Shown piece after piece: positions 4,343 to 63,494 of a DNA stretch of 64,000 bases. Position 1 is the first letter of the stretch; every line of letters begins with the position of its first letter. Origin of the DNA: Terriglobia bacterium. GTDB lineage: Bacteria > Acidobacteriota > Terriglobia > JAIQFV01. Below the pieces are notes generated by a model. The model worked only from the letters and a program-made list of their open reading frames with translations. It ran no database searches and was not told the DNA's origin. The DNA lies in the NCBI GenBank assembly GCA_020072965.1, contig JAIQFY010000009.1:9649-73648 (forward strand), in the 5' to 3' direction. The position numbers were made by a program, and so were the translations under genes.

Positions 4343-4373
4343 GGGGGGCACCCGCCGCGGCGGGTGCCCCTAC
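4343..4373. repeat. REP-like perfect palindrome (GGGGCACCCGCCGCGGCGGGTGCCCC), family copy 1; a second hairpin GGGCGCACagccGTGCGCCC lies at 4298-4317
   Basis: Read directly from sequence. Lies between the convergent gene ends at 4239 and 4400. The same core recurs at 10559-10576 and 17444-17475. Confidence 0.6.
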
Positions 4374-9412: not shown

Positions 9413-10393
9413 TTATCGCTTAAATGGCAAATGATCCAAATCCACGTTCCCGCCGGACAGAATAATTCCGATCCTCTTGTCCGCAAATCCCGCAGCCTTT
9501 TTGAAGATCGCCGCCGCGACCGCCACGGCGCCGGATGGTTCGACAATGATCTTCATCCGCTCCCAAATGTGACGCATGGCTTCGATGATCTCATCCTCGC
9601 TGACAGTGACGATGTCGTCGACCAGTTTCTGGATAATCGGAAACGTTTTATCTCCGAGGGACGACCGGAGGCCATCCGCAACGGTCTGCGGATGAGCCTG
9701 TAAAATGATTTTTCCGGCTTGCTTCGATTGAAACGCATCGTCAGCGCCCTTGGGTTCGCATCCAATGATCCAGGTTTCCGGAGAAAGACCTTTCATGGCC
9801 AGCGCGGTCCCGCTGATCAATCCCCCACCACCCACGGGGGCCAACAACAGGTCCAACCCTTCTTCAACCTGCTCAATGAACTCCAGGGCGCAGGTTCCCT
9901 GCCCGGCAATAACGCGGTAATTATTGTAAGGATGGATGAGGACGGCGCCGGTTCTGGCCACGAGTTCATCCGTCGTCGACTCCCGCGCCTCCAGGGTGGG
10001 CTTGCAAAAGGTGATCTCACCTCCATAGTTGCGGATCGCTCCCACCTTCGGCGCAGGCGCATTCGAAGGGACCACGATGTACGCTTTAATCCCCCGAATT
10101 CTGGCCGCCATGGAAAGCGCGGCTCCATGATTGCCGGAGGAGTGAGTGACGACTCCTTTCGCCGCGTCCGTTTCATCCAGTGAGAGGACCGCATTGATGG
10201 CCCCGCGCGCCTTGAAGGCGCCCCCCTTCTGCAGGTTTTCGCATTTGAAGAAGACCTGGGCGCCGGCCATCTCGTTCATCGTCCGGCTCGTCATGACGGG
10301 CGTGCGATGGATGTGTGGCCGTATCCTCTCGAGCGCCTCGCGAATCGTCTCCAGGCCAGGTTGGGTTTCAGCGTTTATGGTTGGAGTTGTCAT
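9413..10393 (-). CDS. PLP-dependent threonine/serine dehydratase or serine-racemase-like enzyme (fold type II)
   Basis: FKCENLQKGGAFKARGAINAV lysine motif. Gly-rich loops VGGGGLISG and SGGNV. Sits between the large and medium XDH-family subunits. Confidence 0.8.
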   Translation of the reverse strand: MTTPTINAETQPGLETIREALERIRPHIHRTPVMTSRTMNEMAGAQVFFKCENLQKGGAFKARGAINAVLSLDETDAAKGVVTHSSGNHGAALSMAARIRGIKAYIVVPSNAPAPKVGAIRNYGGEITFCKPTLEARESTTDELVARTGAVLIHPYNNYRVIAGQGTCALEFIEQVEEGLDLLLAPVGGGGLISGTALAMKGLSPETWIIGCEPKGADDAFQSKQAGKIILQAHPQTVADGLRSSLGDKTFPIIQKLVDDIVTVSEDEIIEAMRHIWERMKIIVEPSGAVAVAAAIFKKAAGFADKRIGIILSGGNVDLDHLPFKR

Positions 10394-10426: not shown

Positions 10427-10625
10427 ATGGTTTGGTAGCCCCGGCGAGTATTCTTCTCGCCGGGGGATTCTCCAGTTTGGGTAGTCCCGGTCCGAGGCGG
10501 CGTCCGCCATTATTGCTGGCGGATCGCCGGGGGGGGGGCCAGCTTTGGTAGCCCCGGCGAGCCCGCCGCGGCGGGCCGGGGGATCTTCCCCGCGGCTCAC
10601 AGAAGCCCCGGTTTGCCATAGCGGG
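10427..10625. repeat. intercistronic cluster of GC-rich hairpins including a REP-like palindrome GAGCCCGCCGCGGCGGGC (family copy 2) and a TTTGGTAGCCCCGGCGAG direct repeat (3-4 copies)
   Basis: Hairpins read from sequence: CCCCGGCGAGtattcttCTCGCCGGGG (10436-10465) and CCGCCAttattgcTGGCGG (10504-10522). TTTGGTAGCCCCGGCGAG sits at 10430 and 10543, with variants at 10471 and 10603. The whole block lies between the large-subunit stop (10655) and the PLP gene start (10393). Confidence 0.5.
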
Positions 10626-17259: not shown

Positions 17260-17322
17260 CTGGTCATCCTCCGGGATTATAGTGAGATACGCAGTATATT
17301 ACAATTTGACATCGGCAACAAG

Positions 17323-17340
17323 TGCAATATAATGCATGCG
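17323..17340. promoter_or_regulatory. candidate BoxR/BzdR operator: TGCA-N6-TGCA (TGCAATATAATGCATGCG) in the boxC/boxR divergent region
   Basis: TGCA repeats spaced by 6 nt. The embedded ATATAAT is a -10-like hexamer. BzdR-type regulators are reported to bind TGCA-containing repeats; function here is inferred. Confidence 0.35.
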
Positions 17341-17443: not shown

Positions 17444-17475
17444 GTAGGGGCGCCCGCCGCGGCGGGCGCCCCTAC
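17444..17475. repeat. REP-like perfect 32-nt palindrome GTAGGGGCGCCCGCCGCGGCGGGCGCCCCTAC, family copy 3
   Basis: Read from sequence. Located in the boxC-boxR divergent promoter region. Confidence 0.6.
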
Positions 17476-17541: not shown

Positions 17542-18342
17542 TTGGTCAACATGTCGAACCAAAGAGACTTCCTGTCAGCCATCGGAGAGCGCGTCCGTAA
17601 ATTGCGTCGCGCGCGCGGGTGGACCCAATCGCAACTGGCGGAGCGAGCCCAGCTTTCTCCCCGTTTTCTGGCCCAACTTGAGGCGGGAGATGGAAACATC
17701 TCCGTACTCCGTTTGGCGCAAGTGGCCGAGGCGTTGCACCAACCCTTGCGCGACCTGATCCCAAGTGTCTCCCTGACCGAAAGAAAGCCGGGCGGTCAAG
17801 TTCGTGGCCGCAAGCAGATCATCGCTTTGATTGGTCTCCGCGGAGCCGGAAAGACCAGTGTGGGCATTCAGTTGGCCGGACGACTCAAGCTGCCCTTCGT
17901 TGAATTGGACTCCCTCATTGAGAAAGCTGCGCTGATGCCACTGGCCCAGATCTTTTCTCTTCATGGAGAAGGCTACTATCGCCGGCTGGAGTATCAAACA
18001 TTGAAAGAGCTATTGCGGAATCCCAAGCCGATCGTACTCGCGACCGGGGGATCGCTCGTGACGGATCCGCGCACGTGGAGCCTCGTCAAGCAATCCTGCA
18101 CCTCGGTCTGGTTGAAGGCCACTCCCGAAGTTTATTGGAACCGCCTTCTCAAGCAAGGTGACACGCGGCCGATGAAGAACAACCCCTCCGCTATGACTGA
18201 GCTTCGTGCTCTGCTGGCGGCCAGGGAACCCCTCTACGGGCAGGCCGATCACATCATCGATACTTCGCGCCTCTCACTTGGTGAGGCTACGGAAGGCGCG
18301 CTTCACGCCCTTGGGATGGATGCGCTCAGTAAGGATGGATAG
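17542..18342 (+). CDS. boxR: BoxR/BzdR-family transcriptional regulator (N-terminal XRE HTH fused to shikimate-kinase-like effector domain)
   Basis: HTH block RKLRRARGWTQSQLAERAQLSPRFLAQLEAG. P-loop GLRGAGKTSVG and a shikimate-kinase fold. Divergent from boxCB. Confidence 0.8.
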   Translation: MVNMSNQRDFLSAIGERVRKLRRARGWTQSQLAERAQLSPRFLAQLEAGDGNISVLRLAQVAEALHQPLRDLIPSVSLTERKPGGQVRGRKQIIALIGLRGAGKTSVGIQLAGRLKLPFVELDSLIEKAALMPLAQIFSLHGEGYYRRLEYQTLKELLRNPKPIVLATGGSLVTDPRTWSLVKQSCTSVWLKATPEVYWNRLLKQGDTRPMKNNPSAMTELRALLAAREPLYGQADHIIDTSRLSLGEATEGALHALGMDALSKDG

Positions 18343-18575
18343 GGCGGGTGGACGGGGTGACGCACACATCGCGTTTTGTGTGATGTGTGCGAGTCATTAG
18401 ATTGAATGCAGTTCCGTCGTGGGTTCAGAAAGATGTCTCTGGAGATTCAAAGGAAACTGGTATAAGGAAATGAGTTGGTTCAGGAATGAAGGGCTTATGA
18501 CAAATGTTTCCCACAGAAGAAGGACCGCACACATGCCAAGAACGCCTATGTGCGCCACCCGGCCGATCCTACCGA
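18343..18575. repeat. copy A of a duplicated ~230-bp non-coding element (begins with hairpin CGCACACATCGCG..GATGTGTGCG and contains GATGTCTCTGGAGATTCAAAG)
   Basis: Aligns block-wise with 58075-58300. Shared hairpin, a shared 21-mer, and a shared ...CGCACACAYGC.AAGAAC.C.T.TGCGCCACCC segment. No conserved ORF between the copies. Confidence 0.5.
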
Positions 18576-18907
18576 CAAGCTGAGATGATATAACATGTTA
18601 TCGATGTGATTTCCCACACTCTTTTTGAGCTTCTTGTTATCTATTGCATCAATGGATTTCTTCGCAGGGAATGCAGGTTATTCTCCAACAACAGGCTTGG
18701 ACAGCAGTGGGGTGTATCTTATCGACTGGAATCCTCGAGACAAGCTCGGCGAGATGGCACGCGGAAAGGGAATCCATGACTCTGTTTGCCACATAGACCT
18801 GCTGAATGTGACAACCAAAACATGAGGGGTCAGGCACCACCATTCGACAATTGCGATAAAAAGAGAACGTAAGCTCGCTTGCTTCTCCCCTAAGAATTTG
18901 CTGAGTT

Positions 18908-19259
18908 GTCGAATGTCGGTGCCTGACCCGAATGGCGCTTAGACCCGAATGGCGCTTAGTTAAGAAATTGAGATGGAGATTGATCCGCTTCCCTGAAGGG
19001 GAAGTCTTCAATAGCCCAGGGTTGGCCGCCTTGCGGCCTACCCTGGGTGGGGATCGCCCGAAGAGAAGAAGGAACCCTGAAGGGGTTCCTTCCCCACGAG
19101 GATCTGGGTTCGATCCAGCCAAAATATGATCAAAGACTCCTCCGGCCCCCCCTGCGCGGTGACTGGGACTGTCATAAACCTGTTCTCTGGGATGGGGCTA
19201 GATCCGTTTTACCATTCTCTTAACTTAGCGCCATTCGGAGTCAGGCGCCGACATTCGAT
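18908..19259. mobile_element. MITE-like ~350-bp element with ~35-bp terminal inverted repeats and a highly structured interior
   Basis: Left end GTCGAATGTCGGTGCCTGACCCGAATGGCGCTTAG, followed by a duplicated ACCCGAATGGCGCTTAG. Right end CTAAGCGCCATTCGGAGTCAGGCGCCGACATTCGAT, its reverse complement. Interior hairpins: CTTCCCtgaaGGGGAAG, CCCAGGGT...ACCCTGGG, GGAACCCtgaaGGGGTTCC. Solo copies of the terminal-repeat core lie at 18826-18848 and 19949-19971. Confidence 0.45.
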
Positions 19260-19717
19260 TTTCCTGATGCAGCGTTCAATATTTCTTGAAGCTCCTCGAC
19301 GAGGGGATGGCGGGTAAACCCGTGAAAAAACCGAAAAGGCGGCATGAACACCACTTTCGTTCCGAACTCGGTGGGCCGTCGGAATCGGAGCCACATGAGC
19401 TCCGGGTTTACCAATAGACTCCCCGAGACCCGCTCAACGTCGCGGAGCGGCACCTCGATCTCGGTCTCGAAGTTGGAGATCAATAAAACGTCCCCACGAA
19501 GGCGAACTCGTTTGAGCCGCATGCAGGACCAGTAGAATAAAACGGTGCCGAAAACGGTCACGGCCAGGAAGACCCATCCAAGTTCTCGAAAATCTCTTAC
19601 TCCCCAGGAATTGGGCGCGATTATCATACTTAGCGAGATGGCGGCAAAACCACCGATCCATAGCGCTGGGAGTGCGAACTTGTAAAACCAAGTCCATTTA
19701 GACGAAAGGTCTCGCAT
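19241..19717 (-). CDS. hypothetical membrane protein
   Basis: 158-aa ORF with two or three hydrophobic helices (FYKFALPALWIGGFAAISLSMII and WVFLAVTVFGTVLFYW). Its 3' end overlaps the right end of the MITE-like element, so coding status is uncertain. Confidence 0.4.
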   Translation of the reverse strand: MRDLSSKWTWFYKFALPALWIGGFAAISLSMIIAPNSWGVRDFRELGWVFLAVTVFGTVLFYWSCMRLKRVRLRGDVLLISNFETEIEVPLRDVERVSGSLLVNPELMWLRFRRPTEFGTKVVFMPPFRFFHGFTRHPLVEELQEILNAASGKSNVGA

Positions 19718-19998
19718 AGTCTTCTTGTCGCCGACTAACTAATACAGGGAAAGATGAATTCTTTTCGGGTCAGATAACGACCTTAAATGATCCAACAAAT
19801 TTTTGATTGCCCCTTCAGGGCAAACCACGAATGAATGATGATCATCCCTCCCAGGGCGGCGCCCTGGGCTTTTGAAGGCCGCCCTTTCAGGGCAGGCGAA
19901 TAGGTATTGGCATCTCTGACACGGACAAGATCCGATAAAACATGGGGGGGCAGGCACCGACATTCCACGACTTCAGTCGTGCCTGCTCGGAACACCCC

Positions 19999-25533: not shown

Positions 25534-25969
25534 ATTAGGATGGATTTTGCAATTAAGAGAGTAAACAAAGCATCCCGCAGCGAGCGGGATACCTGTCCGC
25601 CCTCACGGGGATGGTTTGGAATTTCGGTTGAAGAATTCAAAAAATAGTGGCTGGCTTAGACCTGATTTCCGAATTTGCCAGCCATTCTCTTGTTCAGTTC
25701 GTTTGCATGGGGAAAGGTTGAAGTGATTCTGCCTTGGCACAAAGGGTGATGCCGCCCGCCAAGGCGGGCTGCGTGGTTGAAGGCTGGTGCCCTCCTGGGG
25801 CTCGCGCCCCAGGCTATTTCATTTCGCCGCTGTGCGGCTTTAAGTATGGATCCAACTCCGGAACGCGGGTTGAAATCCGAACACGCTTCGAACCCTTGAC
25901 TTCTCACCCTATGCCAATAATTAGCTGTCCCCCGTTGACGTGGTCTATACCTTGGCGCCGATTCCATTC

Positions 25970-45393: not shown

Positions 45394-45529
45394 GTCAGCC
45401 GGCGTCGGTCTTCACACCCTTCATTTCCAAGAATGTCAACCGCTCCGGAATGCCGGAGTGATTCTTATTTTTACCAGGATTCCTAAGTTGGCCCCTGTTT
45501 TAAGCCGCGCAGCGGCGAAATAAAGTAAC

Positions 45530-46262
45530 CTGGGGCGTGAGCCTCAGGACCGGGCGACAAGAATAGAATGACAGTCCGCCTTGGCGGACGAAAGAGCGCG
45601 ACAGGAGCGTGGATGCCAACCTAAATCAGTGTTACAATTCAGTGGCGTGATTCCCCCCAGAAGGTCTCAGTAAACCCACATCCCCCGAACAGAGGTCCTC
45701 ACATGGCCACGAGTTATACATCCCTGCGTTTTCACGTTCTCTTCAGTACCAAGAATCGTATGAGATGGATTACAAAAGAATGGGAAGAGGAGCCCTACTC
45801 CTACCTCGCGGGCATCCTTCGGGAAGAACGAGGCCGGCTTCTGAGGGGAACGGAATGGACGACCATGTTCATCTTCTCCTCGTGCTCAGGGCTGACCAGT
45901 CCCTCACCGAGATCATGCGGATCTTGAAATCAAATTCCTCGAGGTGGATTCATGAAAAATCGAGGGAGCGCTGGAGGTTTGAATGGCAACGTGGATATTT
46001 CGGGGTCACAGTGACCAAGTCCCAGGTGGAGCGAGTCCGGCAATACATCAAAAATCAAAAGCAGCACCACCAGCGAGTCAGTTTTCAGGAGGAATTTTTG
46101 AGGTTGCTCAAGGCACATCAAATTGAATTCGACGAACGTTATGTTTGGAAATAATGATCCGGGCATAACTGTCGTCCGCCAAGGCGGACTCAATCTTCTC
46201 CTATTGCACCGAAACCTGAGGCTCACGCCTCAGGCTACGAATAGGCCGTCCGCACAAGGCGG
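45530..46262. mobile_element. IS200/IS605-type (RAYT-like) element: tnpA flanked by inverted hairpin-containing ends
   Basis: Upstream GCGTGAGCCTCAGG...AGTCCGCCTTGGCGGACGAAAG. Downstream GTCGTCCGCCAAGGCGGACT...CCTGAGGCTCACGCC, its reverse complement. An extra GTCCGCACAAGGCGGAC hairpin lies at 46246. Confidence 0.5.
45703..46154 (+). pseudogene. tnpA: IS200/IS605-family Y1 (HuH) transposase TnpA, interrupted by an apparent frameshift near 45840-45860
   Basis: Frame 1 gives SLRFHVLFSTKNRMRWITKEWEEEPYSYLAGILREERG. Frame 2 gives GMDDHVHLLLVLRADQSLTEIMRILKSNSSRW...WQRGYFGVTVTKSQVERVRQYIKNQ, carrying the HuH and catalytic Tyr motifs. Together they cover a complete TnpA. Confidence 0.6.
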
Positions 46263-52958: not shown

Positions 52959-53996
52959 TTAATTCGTCTTCTGATGAAAATATTTTGCAAACTGTTCCAA
53001 GGCGTCAAAGAGCCGCGGGCCCGGGCGGCTGGCATTGTCCTCGACTTTGAAGATCCGGTTCGTCTGTACCGCCGTCGTGTGGCTCCAGCCCGGCCAGGAT
53101 CTCATTTGTTCGATCGCGGGAGAGTTTCCGTTATTTTTCGGGAGAAGGATGATTTCCGGGTCGCGCCTTACAATTTCCTCCAGCGACAATTGCGCCCAGT
53201 CCTGTTTTAGATCGCCGCTGATCGATTCGCCCCCCGCAAGCGAAATCAGATCTGTAATATAGGCCCCGCGTCCCGGCACGCTGATCGGGTTGTACCAAAC
53301 CAGGTAGAGCACCCGAGGCCGGGGCCGTCCCGCCACTTGATTCACGACCGCGTCCCGGCGTTCCCGAAGTGAACGAACGAGGGCGTCCGCTTGGGCCTGG
53401 TTTCCGGTCAACGCGCCGACATCCTCCAAGGCTCGGAAGACATCGTCGACAGACGTCGTGTGCACCCCGTAGAGAGGAATGCCAAAGTGCATCAGCTCGT
53501 CCGCCACAGCAATCTTGTTAATCTCAGGCGTTCCAATCACCAGGTCCGGATGCAGAGAGACGATCACTTCGATGTTGGGATCGATCAATCCCCCCACGCT
53601 GGGCTTCTGCCGGACCTCCGGGGGGTAATCACAATAATCGCTGCGGCCCACCACTCTCTGAGCCAAACCGAGGGCATAGAGAAGTTCGGTGACACTCGGG
53701 GCGATGGAAATGATGCGCTGGGGATGCTCGGGAACCATCACCGTCCGGCCGGTTTCGTCGATGACTTTGCGGTTGGCGGCGGGAGCGAGTATTGGAAAAA
53801 TCAACAGTAACCAGAGTGGGAGGAGAAGTTGCCAGTTGCCAGTGGCCAGTTGCCTAAGTGCAGTTGTCAGTTGTCGGTTCTCAGTTCTCAGTTCCAGGTA
53901 GTCAGTTGCCAGTGGCCAGAAAGACCAGGAGCGGGACTTCGAAGGAATACTGTCAACTCTTGAGCTTCTCATTCTGATGATATTCAATGGAGACAT
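52959..53996 (-). CDS. periplasmic substrate-binding protein of the BtuF/FecB type; true start uncertain because the N-terminal 50 codons are encoded by a heptamer repeat
   Basis: Binding-protein blocks IISIAPSVTELLYALGL and VIVSLHPDL. Signal-like LLLPLWLLLIFPILAPAA follows the repeat-encoded WPLATDYLELRTENRQLTTALRQLATGNWQ. Confidence 0.7.
   Translation of the reverse strand: MSPLNIIRMRSSRVDSIPSKSRSWSFWPLATDYLELRTENRQLTTALRQLATGNWQLLLPLWLLLIFPILAPAANRKVIDETGRTVMVPEHPQRIISIAPSVTELLYALGLAQRVVGRSDYCDYPPEVRQKPSVGGLIDPNIEVIVSLHPDLVIGTPEINKIAVADELMHFGIPLYGVHTTSVDDVFRALEDVGALTGNQAQADALVRSLRERRDAVVNQVAGRPRPRVLYLVWYNPISVPGRGAYITDLISLAGGESISGDLKQDWAQLSLEEIVRRDPEIILLPKNNGNSPAIEQMRSWPGWSHTTAVQTNRIFKVEDNASRPGPRLFDALEQFAKYFHQKTN
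53828..53919. repeat. CAGTTSY heptamer-repeat block with internal direct repeat CAGTTGCCAGTGGCCAG (x2)
   Basis: Read from sequence. A related GCTGAT repeat lies at 54041-54082. Confidence 0.55.
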
Positions 53997-54294
53997 GGCA
54001 CATCCAAGAATAAAGGAGCAAGCCTTTCAGCCGGGACTTGCTGAAAGCTGATTGCTGATAGCTGATCGCTGACAGCTGTTCACTTCAAAAAAATACCCCA
54101 TGCATCTTCGTTGGAAAACGCACGGGGCAATAAACTTTGTCCACGGGCCCTTTGACGCGAAGAGCACAACTTTGGAGTCGTGAACCTGAAGGAACAAAGC
54201 CGTTGAGCATCGCTATGGATGCCAGTCCTTCGGCTTCAATCCCTGGGTTTCGCTGGTTCCAGGCAGGTCTCCTGACTTGACCACTCTCGGTTGC

Positions 54295-54445
54295 GTTCTC
54301 GCCTTCCCATCCCGCTGAAGCGGGGCAGTGGTTTTGAACCCGGAAGCGTGGTCTCACAGTGGCGCGACCGTCGCCGACTTTCACGGCGTTCCCTTTTTGA
54401 CTCCGACCTTTCGGAGTGCCTGAAACCGCTGAGAAAGATCACAGT
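54295..54445 (-). ncRNA. cobalamin (B12) riboswitch leading the btuF-permease-ATPase-TonB-receptor operon
   Basis: Minus-strand RNA contains GGGAAcgccGTGaAAgTCggcgacgGTCGCGCCACTGTGA. This matches the GGGAAnnnGGTGnAAnTCC...CCCGCnACTGT core. Further 3' it contains CCACTG...GGGAAGGC (B12 box and 3' element). Position is appropriate for a B12-uptake operon. Confidence 0.5.
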
Positions 54446-57331: not shown

Positions 57332-58047
57332 TGGAGACCCCAGCCATGTCCATCCAATACGGATTCTGCGCTGTACTGATGCTCTGGTTTCTTTCACCAT
57401 TGGGACTCAGGGGACAGGGCTCAAAGCCAAATGAGTCGACGGTGGATCTTTTACAGCAGCCCATTCAAGAGCTAACCCTCAAGGACCAATATTTCATGGA
57501 CGGGATCGTGAAACTTGACAGTCTGGCTTCAGGATTGGGTTTCTCTGTGGAATATATCCTTCCCTCACCCGAGGCGCCACGGCCCGTTGACCCTAGATTT
57601 ACAGCCAAAATCACTGCAGTTACTCTATCGGAAGCGCTGGACTGGTTGTGCAGATTGGATCCTCGATACACTTGGTCGCGGGATGGAACCACGATCAACG
57701 TCTTTCCGCGAGCAAGCCTGGAGGAAAAAAATTACTATTTCACCCGAAAGTTGTCGAATCTTGTCTTCCGCGACGAGCGAAATGCTTATCATGCTCTTCC
57801 CAAAATCCTCAAACCCATTTCATCGCCCAAGGAGGCGGTCATTACATGGTCTGGGGTGAGGGATTATCAGACTCCTTTTAATGCCAGTCTTACAAACATT
57901 ACTGTGCGAGAGGCGTTGAATCGCCTGATACAGCATCTTTCACCCACTGAAGGGTGGATGGTGACTGGGAATCAAGAGGTCATGCTGCTCGTTGTCTACG
58001 ATACCATCACTCTTCGACCGCCGACAAGCAACGCAGAAAGGCCGTGA
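57322..58047 (+). CDS. secreted hypothetical protein
   Basis: Start at METPAMSIQYGFCAVLMLWFLSPLGLRG (signal peptide). Overlaps the upstream gene end by a few nucleotides. Confidence 0.5.
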   Translation, partial: DELMETPAMSIQYGFCAVLMLWFLSPLGLRGQGSKPNESTVDLLQQPIQELTLKDQYFMDGIVKLDSLASGLGFSVEYILPSPEAPRPVDPRFTAKITAVTLSEALDWLCRLDPRYTWSRDGTTINVFPRASLEEKNYYFTRKLSNLVFRDERNAYHALPKILKPISSPKEAVITWSGVRDYQTPFNASLTNITVREALNRLIQHLSPTEGWMVTGNQEVMLLVVYDTITLRPPTSNAERP

Positions 58048-58074: not shown

Positions 58075-58300
58075 GGGGCGGGGTGGCGCACACATCGCGT
58101 TGGATGCGATGTGTGCGAGTCATCTGAGGAAGGGAGTTCCACTGCCGGTTTAGAACGATGTCTCTGGAGATTCAAAGAAAATGGCTCCATCGAGATGAGT
58201 TGCTGTTGGGACGAAATGATTCACGTTAAATGTCTGCCAAAAAAAAGAAACGCACACACGCAAAGAACACGTGTATGCGCCACCCAGCCCATATGGCACT
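58075..58300. repeat. copy B of the duplicated ~230-bp non-coding element (see 18343-18575)
   Basis: Shares the CGCACACATCGCG..GATGTGTGCGAGTCAT hairpin, GATGTCTCTGGAGATTCAAAG, and the ...TGCGCCACCC segment with copy A. Lies directly after a gene stop, as copy A does. Confidence 0.5.
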
Positions 58301-58602
58301 TCACTCTTTCAATGCCAAAAGAGAAATGAAAACGTGGAAGTAAGAAGGGGTCAACCCGGGACATTGGACAAATGGAAGTTCCAGAAACGATAAACAGAAT
58401 GAATGGGTCAGGCACTCGTATTACAATCACACTTGTTATCCAGCTCATCAAGTCAAAGTGAACGGAAGGGTAGTTTATAATTACACTCCAACGAGAAATG
58501 ATCTTGTTTATATTGTACAGTGCCTTACTGGACTGCTCCCCACGATCAGCAACCAGACAGGGCCCGTTCCGGTTCCGACCCGATTGGGGGTAGGAGTAAT
58601 CA

Positions 58603-60132
58603 ATGATCAGACCCTCGCTGACAAAGAGCTTAGGCTGGGTCTTCATTCTGTTGAGCTATGCTTCGGCCACCGTCCATAGCCAGATGGCGACTCCTCAGAA
58701 CAAGGGTGTAGAACCCCTTGAGAGTTTCTTCCGAGCATCAGTGGTGGAAGCCAAGAATTCTTCTGTGCCCGTAGAACGAAAAGTCTTGGAATTAAACGAC
58801 AGGATTACAGCCGCCAGTCCCGAAGAGATTCATACGGCTCTACCCTCGATTTTGACAGCGTTGAAATCTCCAGACAAAGAGGTGAAGAGGCTTGCCACTG
58901 CGGCCTTAATGACAATCAGTCTGCGGACCGATGGCGGGAGGATTCTCGGGAGCCACGTCACTGAAATCAGCGATCTATTCAACTCGCCGGAGTATTATTT
59001 CCAGCGCGGCGCCGCAGTTATTCTCGGTGTGCTCCGACCATCTCCTCCCCCAGAGGCGATTCCGCCTATGGTAAGCTTTCTGGAACGGACCGACCGGGAT
59101 CTTCCAGCCCAGAGGACTACCCTCGGCACCCTCGCCCGATTTGGAGGAGAAAACCCACAGGCCCGAAGGGCCATTCTGGACTTCCTCTCTCGGCCCATGA
59201 ATGTTGCCGAACGCATCGATGCCCTCAATGCGATGGGAGACCCTCGGGTCAAAGATCCAATTCTCATAAATAAAATCGTCGCGTCTCTTCATGATCCCGA
59301 TCCCCAAGCCAGGCTTGCCGCAATCAATGTGATCACGCGCATTGGGAAGCTTGCTCTGTCGCGGGCAGAGCCTGATTTGCATCGACTGGCCGAGGGCACT
59401 GACGAACCGCAGGAGGTGAAAGCGGCTGCACAGGAGGCCCTTCGGGAGATACAACGCGCCGGCCTTAGCGAACAGATCAACCGGGCAGGCGCCAATGAAA
59501 TCGGCAGATTGTTGCCCTCGATCGTCGCGGCCTTGGCGAATCCGGACGACGCGGTCAAGCTTGACGCGACCATTGCCCTGAGTCAAATCAGCGCGCGACC
59601 GGATAGTGCTGCCCTCCTGACGCCATTCATCAGTGACATCGCCGGTCTCTTGAAGCTGCCCGATAGGAGCTTGCAGCATATGGGAGCCTTTTTGCTGAGT
59701 AGCTTGAAGCCTTCTTCTCCCCCTGAGGTCGTTCCTCCTTTACTGGCATTTCTTAAGCGAACGGACTGTGACACCGAAGAACAGGCGGACCTCATCTTCG
59801 TGCTGGCCCATTATGTTCGCGACTATCCCGAAGTGGGAGACGCCATCGAACGCTTCCTGGCACGACCCTTGGAAGTAAAGGCGAGAATAGTCGCTTTAAC
59901 TGGTCTAGGCAGCTCCCACATCAGCAGCGGCCCGATCCTGGACGAGGTGATTCTGTCTTTGCGTGATCCGAATCAGGACATTAGGCTTGCCGCCATAGAA
60001 ACCCTCACGCGCCTGGGACCGCAGGCGTTGCCTCGCGCTGAGCCGGATCTGCAGCGGATTGCCAACCGAGCCGATGAGTCGCCCGATGTAAGGGAGGCAG
60101 CCAAGCGAGCCTTCAATGCTACACGCCGTTGA
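58603..60132 (+). CDS. secreted HEAT/PBS-lyase-repeat protein
   Basis: Signal peptide. Repeated alpha-helical units, such as IVASLHDPDPQARLAAINVITRIG and ILSLRDPNQDIRLAAIETLTRLG. Confidence 0.7.
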   Translation: MIRPSLTKSLGWVFILLSYASATVHSQMATPQNKGVEPLESFFRASVVEAKNSSVPVERKVLELNDRITAASPEEIHTALPSILTALKSPDKEVKRLATAALMTISLRTDGGRILGSHVTEISDLFNSPEYYFQRGAAVILGVLRPSPPPEAIPPMVSFLERTDRDLPAQRTTLGTLARFGGENPQARRAILDFLSRPMNVAERIDALNAMGDPRVKDPILINKIVASLHDPDPQARLAAINVITRIGKLALSRAEPDLHRLAEGTDEPQEVKAAAQEALREIQRAGLSEQINRAGANEIGRLLPSIVAALANPDDAVKLDATIALSQISARPDSAALLTPFISDIAGLLKLPDRSLQHMGAFLLSSLKPSSPPEVVPPLLAFLKRTDCDTEEQADLIFVLAHYVRDYPEVGDAIERFLARPLEVKARIVALTGLGSSHISSGPILDEVILSLRDPNQDIRLAAIETLTRLGPQALPRAEPDLQRIANRADESPDVREAAKRAFNATRR

Positions 60133-62795: not shown

Positions 62796-63223
62796 GGTGG
62801 ATTACTCGAGAAAATGTGAAAGTTGATCGTGTGGCCTGCCCCTGGTTGATTAAGCGTTTTATCGATTCGAGCGCGGAATTTATCTTTTGTCCAGAAGACC
62901 GTATCGTGGATCGGGCCAGCGAACTACAAGCGACACCTTTTGACGTCCCCAAAAACCCTGCGATTAAATTGAATCATCGCGATGGAAAATGTTCATTTGA
63001 AACTATCCTCGAAGAATTCCACTTAACTGGGAATCCCGCACTGGCGCGACTCGCTCTCATCGTGCATGGGGCCGATATCCCCAGTGAAATGCATGTCGCC
63101 CCCGAAAGCGCGGGGCTCTACGCGATTGCCAATGGATTTTCCAAAACCTGCACCTCCGATGATGAGCGCCTGGAAAAGCAATTTCCGGTTTATGATGCGT
63201 TGTATGAATTCTGCAAGAAGTGA
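62792..63223 (+). CDS. stand-alone chromate-resistance (ChrB C-terminal-like) domain protein
   Basis: MRWITRENVKVDRVACPWLIKRFIDSSAEFIF parallels the C-terminal domain block of the 60544 gene. Confidence 0.65.
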   Translation: MRWITRENVKVDRVACPWLIKRFIDSSAEFIFCPEDRIVDRASELQATPFDVPKNPAIKLNHRDGKCSFETILEEFHLTGNPALARLALIVHGADIPSEMHVAPESAGLYAIANGFSKTCTSDDERLEKQFPVYDALYEFCKK

Positions 63224-63230
63224 GAAGAAG

Positions 63231-63494
63231 TTGTCAGTTCTCAGTTGCCAGTTGCCAGAAGGCAGTTGTCAGTTCTCAGTTCTCAGTTGTCAGTTGAAGT
63301 ACTCCCGCGCTCCGTGACTCTCCAATCTGGCTGCATACGCAACTCACATCCAGTCTGGCGCGACATCGAAAGAAAGGAATTGAGTGGTCAGTTGTGATTG
63401 AGGTCCACTTCCGTTCTCTGACCTCTGGCTATTCTTTCAAACCACTGAAGTCTCTCTCTTCACTGATAACTGAGAACTGAGAACTGACAACTGC
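63231..63494. repeat. CAGTTSY heptamer-repeat arms in inverted orientation flanking ~160 bp
   Basis: Left arm 63231-63297 (GTTGTCAGTTCTCAGTTGCCAGTTGCCAG...CAGTTCTCAGTTCTCAGTTGTCAGTTG). Right arm 63461-63494 (CACTGATAACTGAGAACTGAGAACTGACAACTGC). Confidence 0.55.

Follow-up and report, generated by a model that had tools for sequence, protein, structure and literature searches.

The 64-kb stretch of Terriglobia contig JAIQFY010000009.1 analyzed here (64,000 nucleotides, hereafter the window, to which all unlabeled coordinates refer) carries two copies, A and B, of a clade-restricted, low-copy, hairpin-ended composite repeat that is directionally placed at gene 3' ends and has a one-way terminator-like end. 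Across species, individual copies are retained at corresponding gene 3' ends and evolve more slowly than the silent sites of neighboring genes, revealing purifying selection. The family gains copies through occasional duplication and decays as copies become truncated. We propose, with moderate confidence, that this low-copy element of Terriglobia is a composite repeat akin to dimers of repetitive extragenic palindromic (REP) sequences, or REPINs, that acts as a gene-3'-end module; a gene-end or terminator module is the most likely reading, rather than a new structured RNA gene. Terriglobia are abundant, mostly uncultured soil bacteria, and to our knowledge almost nothing is known of their non-coding elements.

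Two copies with mutually inverted ends

The first-pass annotation had described a duplicated element, and the duplication is borne out: pairwise alignment of copies A and B gives 75% identity, and the two share an exact 21-mer, GATGTCTCTGGAGATTCAAAG, that occurs at exactly two sites in the window (18432-18452 and 58157-58177, both plus strand) and reached two matches in 0 of 100 shuffles. The hairpin CGCACACATCGCG...GATGTGTGCGAGTCAT and the segment ...CGCACACAYGC.AAGAAC...TGCGCCACCC that it listed as shared are present in both copies, both copies do start shortly after a gene stop, and the motif GGGTCAGGCAC, which it read as the end of a miniature inverted-repeat transposable element (MITE), lies downstream of both, at 18827 and 58405. 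A feature absent from that annotation is that the two ends of the element are mutual inverted repeats. The look-alike stretches extend over 213 bases; since inverted repeats of GGGTGGCGCAYA mark both ends (18355 plus, 18560 minus, 58081 plus and 58285 minus; four matches in 0 of 100 shuffles), we place the limits, tag to tag, at about 18355-18560 for copy A and about 58081-58285 for copy B. An nhmmer profile search found no third copy within the window.

The order of parts is a tag and hairpin 1, a spacer of 134 nt, and hairpin 2 with a second tag. The building block, or unit, is the tag GGGTGG joined to a stem-loop of 12-13 bp, CGCAYACA...UGUGUGCG, and two units lie head-to-head with their tags outside; the hairpins are short imperfect palindromes of 31 nt (hairpin 1) and 28-35 nt (hairpin 2). 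Copy A (plus strand) begins 12 nt beyond the TAG stop codon (18340-18342) that closes an HTH and shikimate-kinase gene (17542-18342). Its left unit (18355-18391, plus) consists of the tag GGGTGA (18355-18360) and hairpin 1, CGCACACATCGCG-TTTTG-TGTGATGTGTGCG (18361-18391; dG -19.7 kcal/mol), followed by the spacer (18392-18525; 134 nt, purine fraction 0.61, C fraction 0.13), which contains the 21-mer and has at its 3' end the purine tract CCCACAGAAGAAGGAC (18510-18525), a U/C-rich tail when read on the minus strand. The right unit (18526-18560, minus) comprises hairpin 2 (18526-18554) and the tag CCACCC (18555-18560), so that the minus strand reads GGGTGG, the hairpin and then GUCCUUCUUCUGUG.

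Copy B (plus strand) follows a 233-aa hypothetical gene (57346-58047), with 33 nt between the TGA stop (58045-58047) and the element. Its left unit (58081-58117, plus) has the tag GGGTGG (58081-58086) and hairpin 1 (58087-58117; dG -22.7 kcal/mol), its spacer (58118-58250, plus) is 133 nt long with the identical 21-mer and an A-rich tract at its end (58237-58250), and its right unit with tail (58237-58285, minus) reads GGGTGG, hairpin 2 (58279-58251) and then UUUCUUUUUUUUGG, an arrangement that resembles an intrinsic terminator. Across copies the plus strand of the spacer is purine-rich (0.56-0.62) and poor in C (0.13-0.20), with a G+C content of 41-46% against 55.7% for the window, and AGATTCAA within the 21-mer is invariant among all copies that retain the spacer core.

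Distribution and placement at gene ends

Thirteen copies at five kinds of locus were found in related Terriglobia metagenomes (uncultured soil Acidobacteria): after a shikimate-kinase regulator, the 233-aa hypothetical gene, its 25%-identical paralog, a DinB-like gene and a CarboxypepD_reg gene. Exact 20-mer scans of two large collections (genome_contigs and metagenome_contigs) yielded one true additional copy, at the DinB-like gene (locus L003); the other three exact matches were chance matches in coding sequence. Most copies differ within the 20-mer, and most further copies were found via orthologs of the flanking genes followed by nhmmer. Four metagenome contigs (L005-L008) are 100% identical to the window. 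BLAST of copy B against plasmid and phage sequences gave no match.

At the shikimate-kinase locus the element directly follows the gene in 5/5 relatives with 79-86% protein identity (L009, L012, L015, L017 and L018), and in L009 a truncated copy is fused in tandem to a full one. The locus of the 233-aa gene is more varied: full orthologous copies are present in L026 and L027 (copies L026b and L027a), only the first unit remains in L022, and no element follows the orthologous gene in L021 (79% identity), which has a lone hairpin elsewhere. L026 in addition carries a 5' half-copy after the 25%-identical paralog, and L027 a second copy, L027b, at a new locus after the CarboxypepD_reg gene. No element was found in the available flank of the more distant orthologs L019 (63% identity) and L031 (64%). 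The relatives are thus polymorphic for its presence, with absence in L021, L019 and L031, truncation in L022 and a new site in L027b, and several contigs end inside or beside the element.

All copies (13/13) are co-oriented with the preceding gene and lie 8-190 nt, mostly less than 80 nt, after its stop codon. Co-orientation holds at 5/5 independent locus kinds, for which the chance expectation is about 1/32. The shikimate-kinase regulator gene, as annotated, extends into the element in two relatives (L009 10751-10803 and L015 8312-8371), with the stop codon in the loop of hairpin 1 in L009 and 10 nt after hairpin 1 in L015, so the last ~10-15 codons of these genes are derived from the repeat.

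The 233-aa gene family (window 57346-58047, L021 10001-11696, L026 842-2524 and L022 2620-4926) has no Pfam match. The gene occurs in tandem with its 25%-identical paralog, in a neighborhood that differs among genomes and in L022 adjoins an IS1595 transposase.

Slow change and vertical history

The copies change more slowly than four-fold degenerate sites of their neighboring genes at both loci that we compared. At the shikimate-kinase locus the element is 0.75-0.81 identical between the window and its relatives, with four-fold sites at 0.51-0.56, and copies L009b and L012 are 0.93 identical with four-fold sites at 0.74; at the locus of copy B the corresponding values are 0.82-0.85 and 0.68-0.72. 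The best-conserved part is the 5' half of the spacer, at 0.89 within loci. Copies group by locus, and the identity between A and B (0.75) is no higher than that between orthologs, which indicates that A and B are old paralogs under constraint and not recent insertions.

More recent events are also visible. L027b is 92.9% identical to L027a and has the same 8-nt insertion, pointing to a recent duplication to a new locus, and L015 resembles a recombinant of the two L009 copies. The type of hairpin-2 tip and some states of the 21-mer track genomes and not loci, with the two L009 copies as a counter-example.

Conserved helices and a one-way terminator-like end

Single-sequence folds of the whole element pair its two ends on either strand (z-scores -3.0 to -6.8), and the helices kept across 10 full copies are confined to the tag-tag stem, hairpin 1 and hairpin 2. 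Pairing in these three helices reaches 90% (plus strand) and 92% (minus strand), compared with 18-62% in controls slid by 1-3 columns. Compensatory changes include a C-G to G-C exchange in L003, a double change in the lone hairpin of L021 and a whole-tip swap of hairpin 2 between two alternative self-complementary versions. Within the spacer no helix was supported by an exhaustive column-pair scan of both strands together with RNAalifold, which returned only arm-arm pairs, and a spacer hairpin around GGCATGA..TCATGCC was rejected because it is not kept across copies.

The two hairpins differ in strand preference over the 10 copies: hairpin 2 is paired at 84.3% on the plus strand and 98.6% on the minus strand, hairpin 1 at 93.3% and 88.2%, respectively, such that each forms best on the strand on which it is read from the outside inwards. 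A firmer asymmetry lies in what follows hairpin 2. On the minus strand this hairpin (dG -13 to -24 kcal/mol) has 7-11 U among the 14 nt behind it in 10/10 full copies, while on the plus strand its tail has 0-3 U and an A-rich tract comes before it, and it is not a bidirectional terminator. A GC-rich hairpin with a U-rich tract, the hallmark of intrinsic terminators, is therefore present on the minus strand, with terminator activity predicted. A terminator consensus scan accepts copy B (14 pairs and TCTTTTTTTT, among the strongest sites listed in 44-64 kb, together with that of the cobalamin riboswitch) and rejects copy A. The arrangement of hairpin and U tract is preserved in L003, where the arm beside the U tract has been swapped for another GC-rich palindrome. 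U-tract terminators are in use by this genome, as a cobalamin riboswitch in the window has one. Since the spacer is purine-rich and C-poor on the plus strand, a minus-strand RNA would have more C than G and be pyrimidine-rich.

The palindrome that replaced one arm of hairpin 2 in L003 (at about 85-100) is CCCGCCGCGGCGGG, a relative of the GC-rich palindrome GGGGCRCCCGCCGCGGCGGGYGCCCCTAC that is repeated in the window at 4345-4373 and 17447-17475. This pair may represent another mobile or recurrent palindromic unit.

End units outside the element

Solitary units or hairpins were found in L021, L022 and L030. The last of these, IMGVR_UViG_3300031862_000769, is a phage contig that was found by scanning viral contigs with the tag and arm; it has both a lone unit and a dimer of ~93 bp, the latter with outward tags and lacking the 134-nt spacer. 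Units and their shorter relatives lie at L030 positions 4645, 4717, 7067, 9865-9957 (the short dimer) and 10545-10583. That these units are found alone, as a short dimer and as a long dimer shows that they are independent repeats, and their occurrence here suggests a unit family common to host and phage. The phage contig bears capsid and morphogenesis genes; its units, along with shorter relatives of the form GGNTGG-CGCAGAC..GTCTGCG, sit between the structural genes.

Relation to known repeat families

REP superfamilies are defined by a GTAG or CGTC tetranucleotide at the end of the palindrome, and head-to-head REP dimers have conserved spacers, lie downstream of open reading frames (ORFs) and probably act as RNA elements (PMC3733652). 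According to the same work, such dimers are located between co-directional or convergent genes and are inherited vertically over the long term with rare duplication (PMC3733652). The likeness of the element to REPs, REPINs and the bacterial interspersed mosaic elements (BIMEs) of E. coli is considerable in form: it is built from a short tagged palindromic unit that is found singly or as an inverted pair with the tags outside, and the pair can fold either as two hairpins or as one long hairpin. It further shares with REP dimers the conserved spacer, the site downstream of ORFs and the vertical inheritance with rare duplication. In contrast, its spacer of 134 nt exceeds the 20-100 bp of most described dimers and is the best-conserved part, its putative one-way U-tract terminator is built in, its apparent copy number is low, its co-orientation with the upstream gene is strict, and no REP-associated tyrosine transposase (RAYT) was identified in the fetched loci. 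Because the tag is GGGTGG and neither GTAG nor CGTC, we do not file the element in either REP superfamily.

Other families invite comparison as well. With its terminal inverted repeats, non-coding nature, presence/absence polymorphism and a length within 50-500 bp, the element resembles MITEs. The Correia (NEMIS) repeats of Neisseria, the enterobacterial repetitive intergenic consensus (ERIC) and the pneumococcal RUP and BOX elements are MITE-like, non-coding repeats of 100-250 bp with terminal inverted repeats that are transcribed into mRNAs; they occur in tens to hundreds of near-identical copies without orientation bias, and Correia elements produce a TA duplication. The element matches these in size, terminal inverted repeats, lack of coding capacity, intergenic location and modular or mosaic copies, and it is predicted to be co-transcribed with its neighbors and to form long duplexes that are cut by RNases, as they do. 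It departs from them in having no visible target-site duplication and in consisting of few, old, locus-specific copies under constraint. Compared with an ordinary intrinsic terminator, hairpin 2 has on its minus strand the expected GC-rich stem of 10-12 bp and U-rich tract in every full copy, yet it is embedded in a larger conserved repeat and faces away from the preceding gene.

A candidate gene-end module and its alternatives

We envisage a directional gene-end module that works in cis, at the level of transcripts. A sense transcript would meet hairpin 1 a few nucleotides after the stop codon, which could protect its 3' end, and transcription of both arms would allow an end-to-end duplex of ~40 bp, a possible RNase III substrate. 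Polymerase arriving from the opposite direction would encounter hairpin 2 and the U-rich tract as an intrinsic terminator, and beyond this tract a weakly structured, pyrimidine-rich stretch with C in excess of G that might load Rho; antisense or convergent transcription would thereby be stopped before it reached the gene. Retention at the same gene ends and change slower than that of silent sites argue for a role at the level of the host and not just selfish copying, and they illustrate that a REP-dimer-like repeat can hold the same gene ends across species. Should the directional design prove true, the element would be a compact natural transcription insulator in which a sense hairpin is combined with a terminator facing antisense. 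It also breaks metagenome assemblies and, where annotated gene ends run into it, matters for the annotation of metagenome-assembled genomes.

Several observations weigh against such a REP-like gene-end module. The tag ends in GTGG, and GTAG is seen in L012 only, through a single substitution. REPs usually flank a cognate RAYT gene, which encodes a Y1 transposase, yet the ~300 kb of fetched loci showed neither a RAYT nor any other transposase with matching ends, in a survey that did not extend to searching the genomes for RAYT; in this small sample the transposase genes that are present (IS110, IS1595 and IS4/5-type) do not carry the ends of the element. Inspection revealed no target-site duplication around copies A, B and L003, the ends being uncertain by a few bases such that a 2-bp duplication is possible. 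REPs number tens to hundreds of copies per genome; the window, at 64 kb, holds two elements with four units and no further lone unit. The strand preference of the hairpins rests on ~4 independent substitutions. Hairpin 1 lacks a U tract, and its form in L017 and L018 is degenerate (dG -7.5 kcal/mol). At copy B the downstream gene, a HEAT-repeat gene that starts at 58603, 318 nt beyond the element, is co-directional, which leaves the minus-strand terminator without an obvious transcript to stop. A gene-end module also does not account for conservation of the 5' spacer with its 21-mer core, and transcription, termination and processing at the element are in every case what we infer.

The first-pass annotation had offered a structured non-coding RNA, a 3'-untranslated-region (3'-UTR) element or a composite repeat. 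The composite repeat is upheld by ends that are inverted hairpin units, found also singly and as a short dimer, and by truncated, tandem and recently duplicated copies; a 3'-UTR location agrees with placement shortly after the stop codon, in the orientation of the gene, at 5/5 locus kinds; and the further copies whose absence it would have taken as decisive do exist. The structured RNA or small RNA (sRNA) gene was not supported. Searched at gathering score, the whole window gave nothing relevant in Rfam, copy A having no match at E<=10 and copy B chance-level matches only, and no tRNA or tmRNA was found. The covariation that was to be sought gave no net support (RNAalifold term +1.01). Conserved pairing is confined to the terminal hairpins and the end-to-end stem. 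No sigma-70-like promoter lies inside copy A or B, and the genome does use the sigma-70 consensus, a perfect TTGACA-16-TATAAT being located ~1 kb from copy A at 17306-17333 (plus). By eye, sigma-54, ECF-type and IHF motifs fit the element poorly, and in a hand count CsrA-type GGA motifs were not above expectation.

Conservation of the spacer core lends a regulatory RNA or a protein-binding site some credence, and it is possible, if unlikely, that the 134-nt spacer with its core ..GGTTCAGAACGATG.NTC.G.AGATTCAAAGGAA.. is the selected part, a cis- or trans-acting RNA module of Terriglobia for which the hairpins are a mere frame. Such a module might, for example, be the seed of a 3'-UTR-derived sRNA or the docking site of a co-evolving RNA- or DNA-binding protein; it would account for derived states of the core that are common to different loci of one genome, and a mobile palindromic repeat would then have been domesticated into a regulatory element. 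A family of paralogous regulatory RNAs, either 3'-UTR-derived or independent sRNAs, with the 21-mer and 5' spacer as seed or protein site and the hairpins as protection, strikes us as doubtful. Purifying selection on the whole element and above all on the 5' spacer would fit it, as would the constant orientation with the upstream gene, a spacer predicted to be weakly structured and hence seed-like, and 21-mer states common to loci of one genome (the window, L027 and partly L026), which could reflect co-evolution with a partner. Besides the missing promoter and Rfam match and the lack of covariation beyond the arms, such an RNA would have no plus-strand 3' terminator, given the 0-3 U after hairpin 2, and the sole feature resembling a terminator would come first, at the 5' end, in an RNA from the minus strand; moreover, 4 positions of the 21-mer distinguish the two L009 copies, and truncated or tandem copies and lone hairpins resemble the dynamics of a repeat.

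Those same dynamics could be taken to mean that the element is a purely selfish MITE or REPIN with no host role, its similarity arising from copying and not from selection. Terminal inverted repeats, non-coding sequence of MITE size (50-500 bp), truncations, tandem copies and a recent 93% duplicate all suit this idea, as do the unit in a phage contig, the contig breaks at the element and the vacant orthologous sites of L021, L019 and L031. We judge it improbable, in that orthologous copies are far more alike than silent sites of the adjacent genes, 5/5 loci are co-oriented with the upstream gene, no target-site duplication is visible, and the fetched DNA holds no autonomous partner with these ends; grouping of the copies by locus and not by genome further implies that their similarity is mostly vertical and constrained. 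It is quite improbable that the element is instead a DNA-level site, at which the spacer core and the short palindromes GGAGTTCC and GTTCAGAAC bind a nucleoid, recombination or transposition protein. E. coli BIME-1/RIP elements contain an IHF site, and primary-sequence conservation without RNA helices, short dyads with loops too short for RNA hairpins and an AT-richer spacer would be expected of such a site; however, some copies do not preserve the dyads (GCAGTTCC, GGGTCAGAAC), no match to the IHF consensus is apparent by eye, and asymmetry between the strands, in the hairpins (G-U versus C-A) as well as in the U tract and the purine skew, points to a single-stranded form. A small protein gene, in the frame ...GSERCLWRFKGN... 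common to a 54-aa ORF of copy A and a 72-aa ORF of copy B, is effectively refuted. Over the core, A, B and L003 all keep this frame open, with several synonymous differences, but a stop codon interrupts it in L003, A and B differ by 1-nt indels, L027a and L027b have an 8-nt insertion, and L009a and L026b have lost the candidate ATG; there was no match among 5.8 billion predicted proteins and no gene call at the element in four assemblies. Earlier statements on coding potential accordingly hold in part: copy A has no ORF of at least 60 aa, yet it has ORFs of 54 aa (plus) and 53 aa (minus), and the 72-aa ORF of copy B, said not to be conserved in A, is in the same frame as the 54-aa plus-strand ORF there and is broken in other copies. 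Stops, indels and the lost ATG led us to reject the coding frames ERCLWRFK and MSLEIQRK, and integron attC sites, Tn3-type inverted repeats with a 5-bp duplication, IS200/IS605-type ends, retron non-coding RNA and 6S/Y RNA were dropped on architecture or context.

Other repeats and motifs in the window

A second repeat, GGGTCAGGCACCGACATTCGA, occurs in the window at 18827-18847 (plus), 18909-18929 (minus), 19238-19258 (plus) and 19947-19967 (plus), with a partial match at 58405-58415, and is found again in relatives at L015 8604 and 9133 and at L018 4334; at several loci it lies 100-260 nt downstream of the main element. Two of the window copies constitute an inverted pair of ~100 bp (18827-18929), and two more flank a 158-aa ORF without a Pfam match (19241-19717, minus), just as direct repeats of GGGTCAGGCACCGACATTCGA flank the orthologous 160-aa ORF in L015. 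Directly after the inverted GGGTCAGGCAC pair is a short tandem duplication, GAATGGCGCTTAGACCC GAATGGCGCTTAG, at 18930-18960. Two tracts of 74-88 nt (53820-53907 and 63222-63295) consist of 7-nt repeats resembling CAGTTGC or CAGTTCT, are mutually 84% identical and make up repeat family D1.

Rfam matches in the window include three to the Acido-Lenti-1 motif (RF01687), at 19850-19894 (plus), 25794-25839 (plus) and 45503-45548 (minus). A hairpin similar to this motif, CCCAGGG...CCCTGGGCT, is present ~40 nt after the L003 copy and also near the L015 and L018 copies. The cobalamin riboswitch (54245-54438, minus; 99 bits) is followed by a strong U-tract terminator (54129-54094, minus) and lies upstream of minus-strand transport genes for a TonB-dependent receptor and ABC, FecCD and periplasmic-binding proteins. 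Finally, back-to-back sigma-70-type promoters occupy 17276-17333 between the divergent enoyl-CoA hydratase and HTH and shikimate-kinase genes, where the plus-strand promoter is the perfect TTGACA-16-TATAAT and the minus-strand one reads TTGTAA-17-TATAAT.

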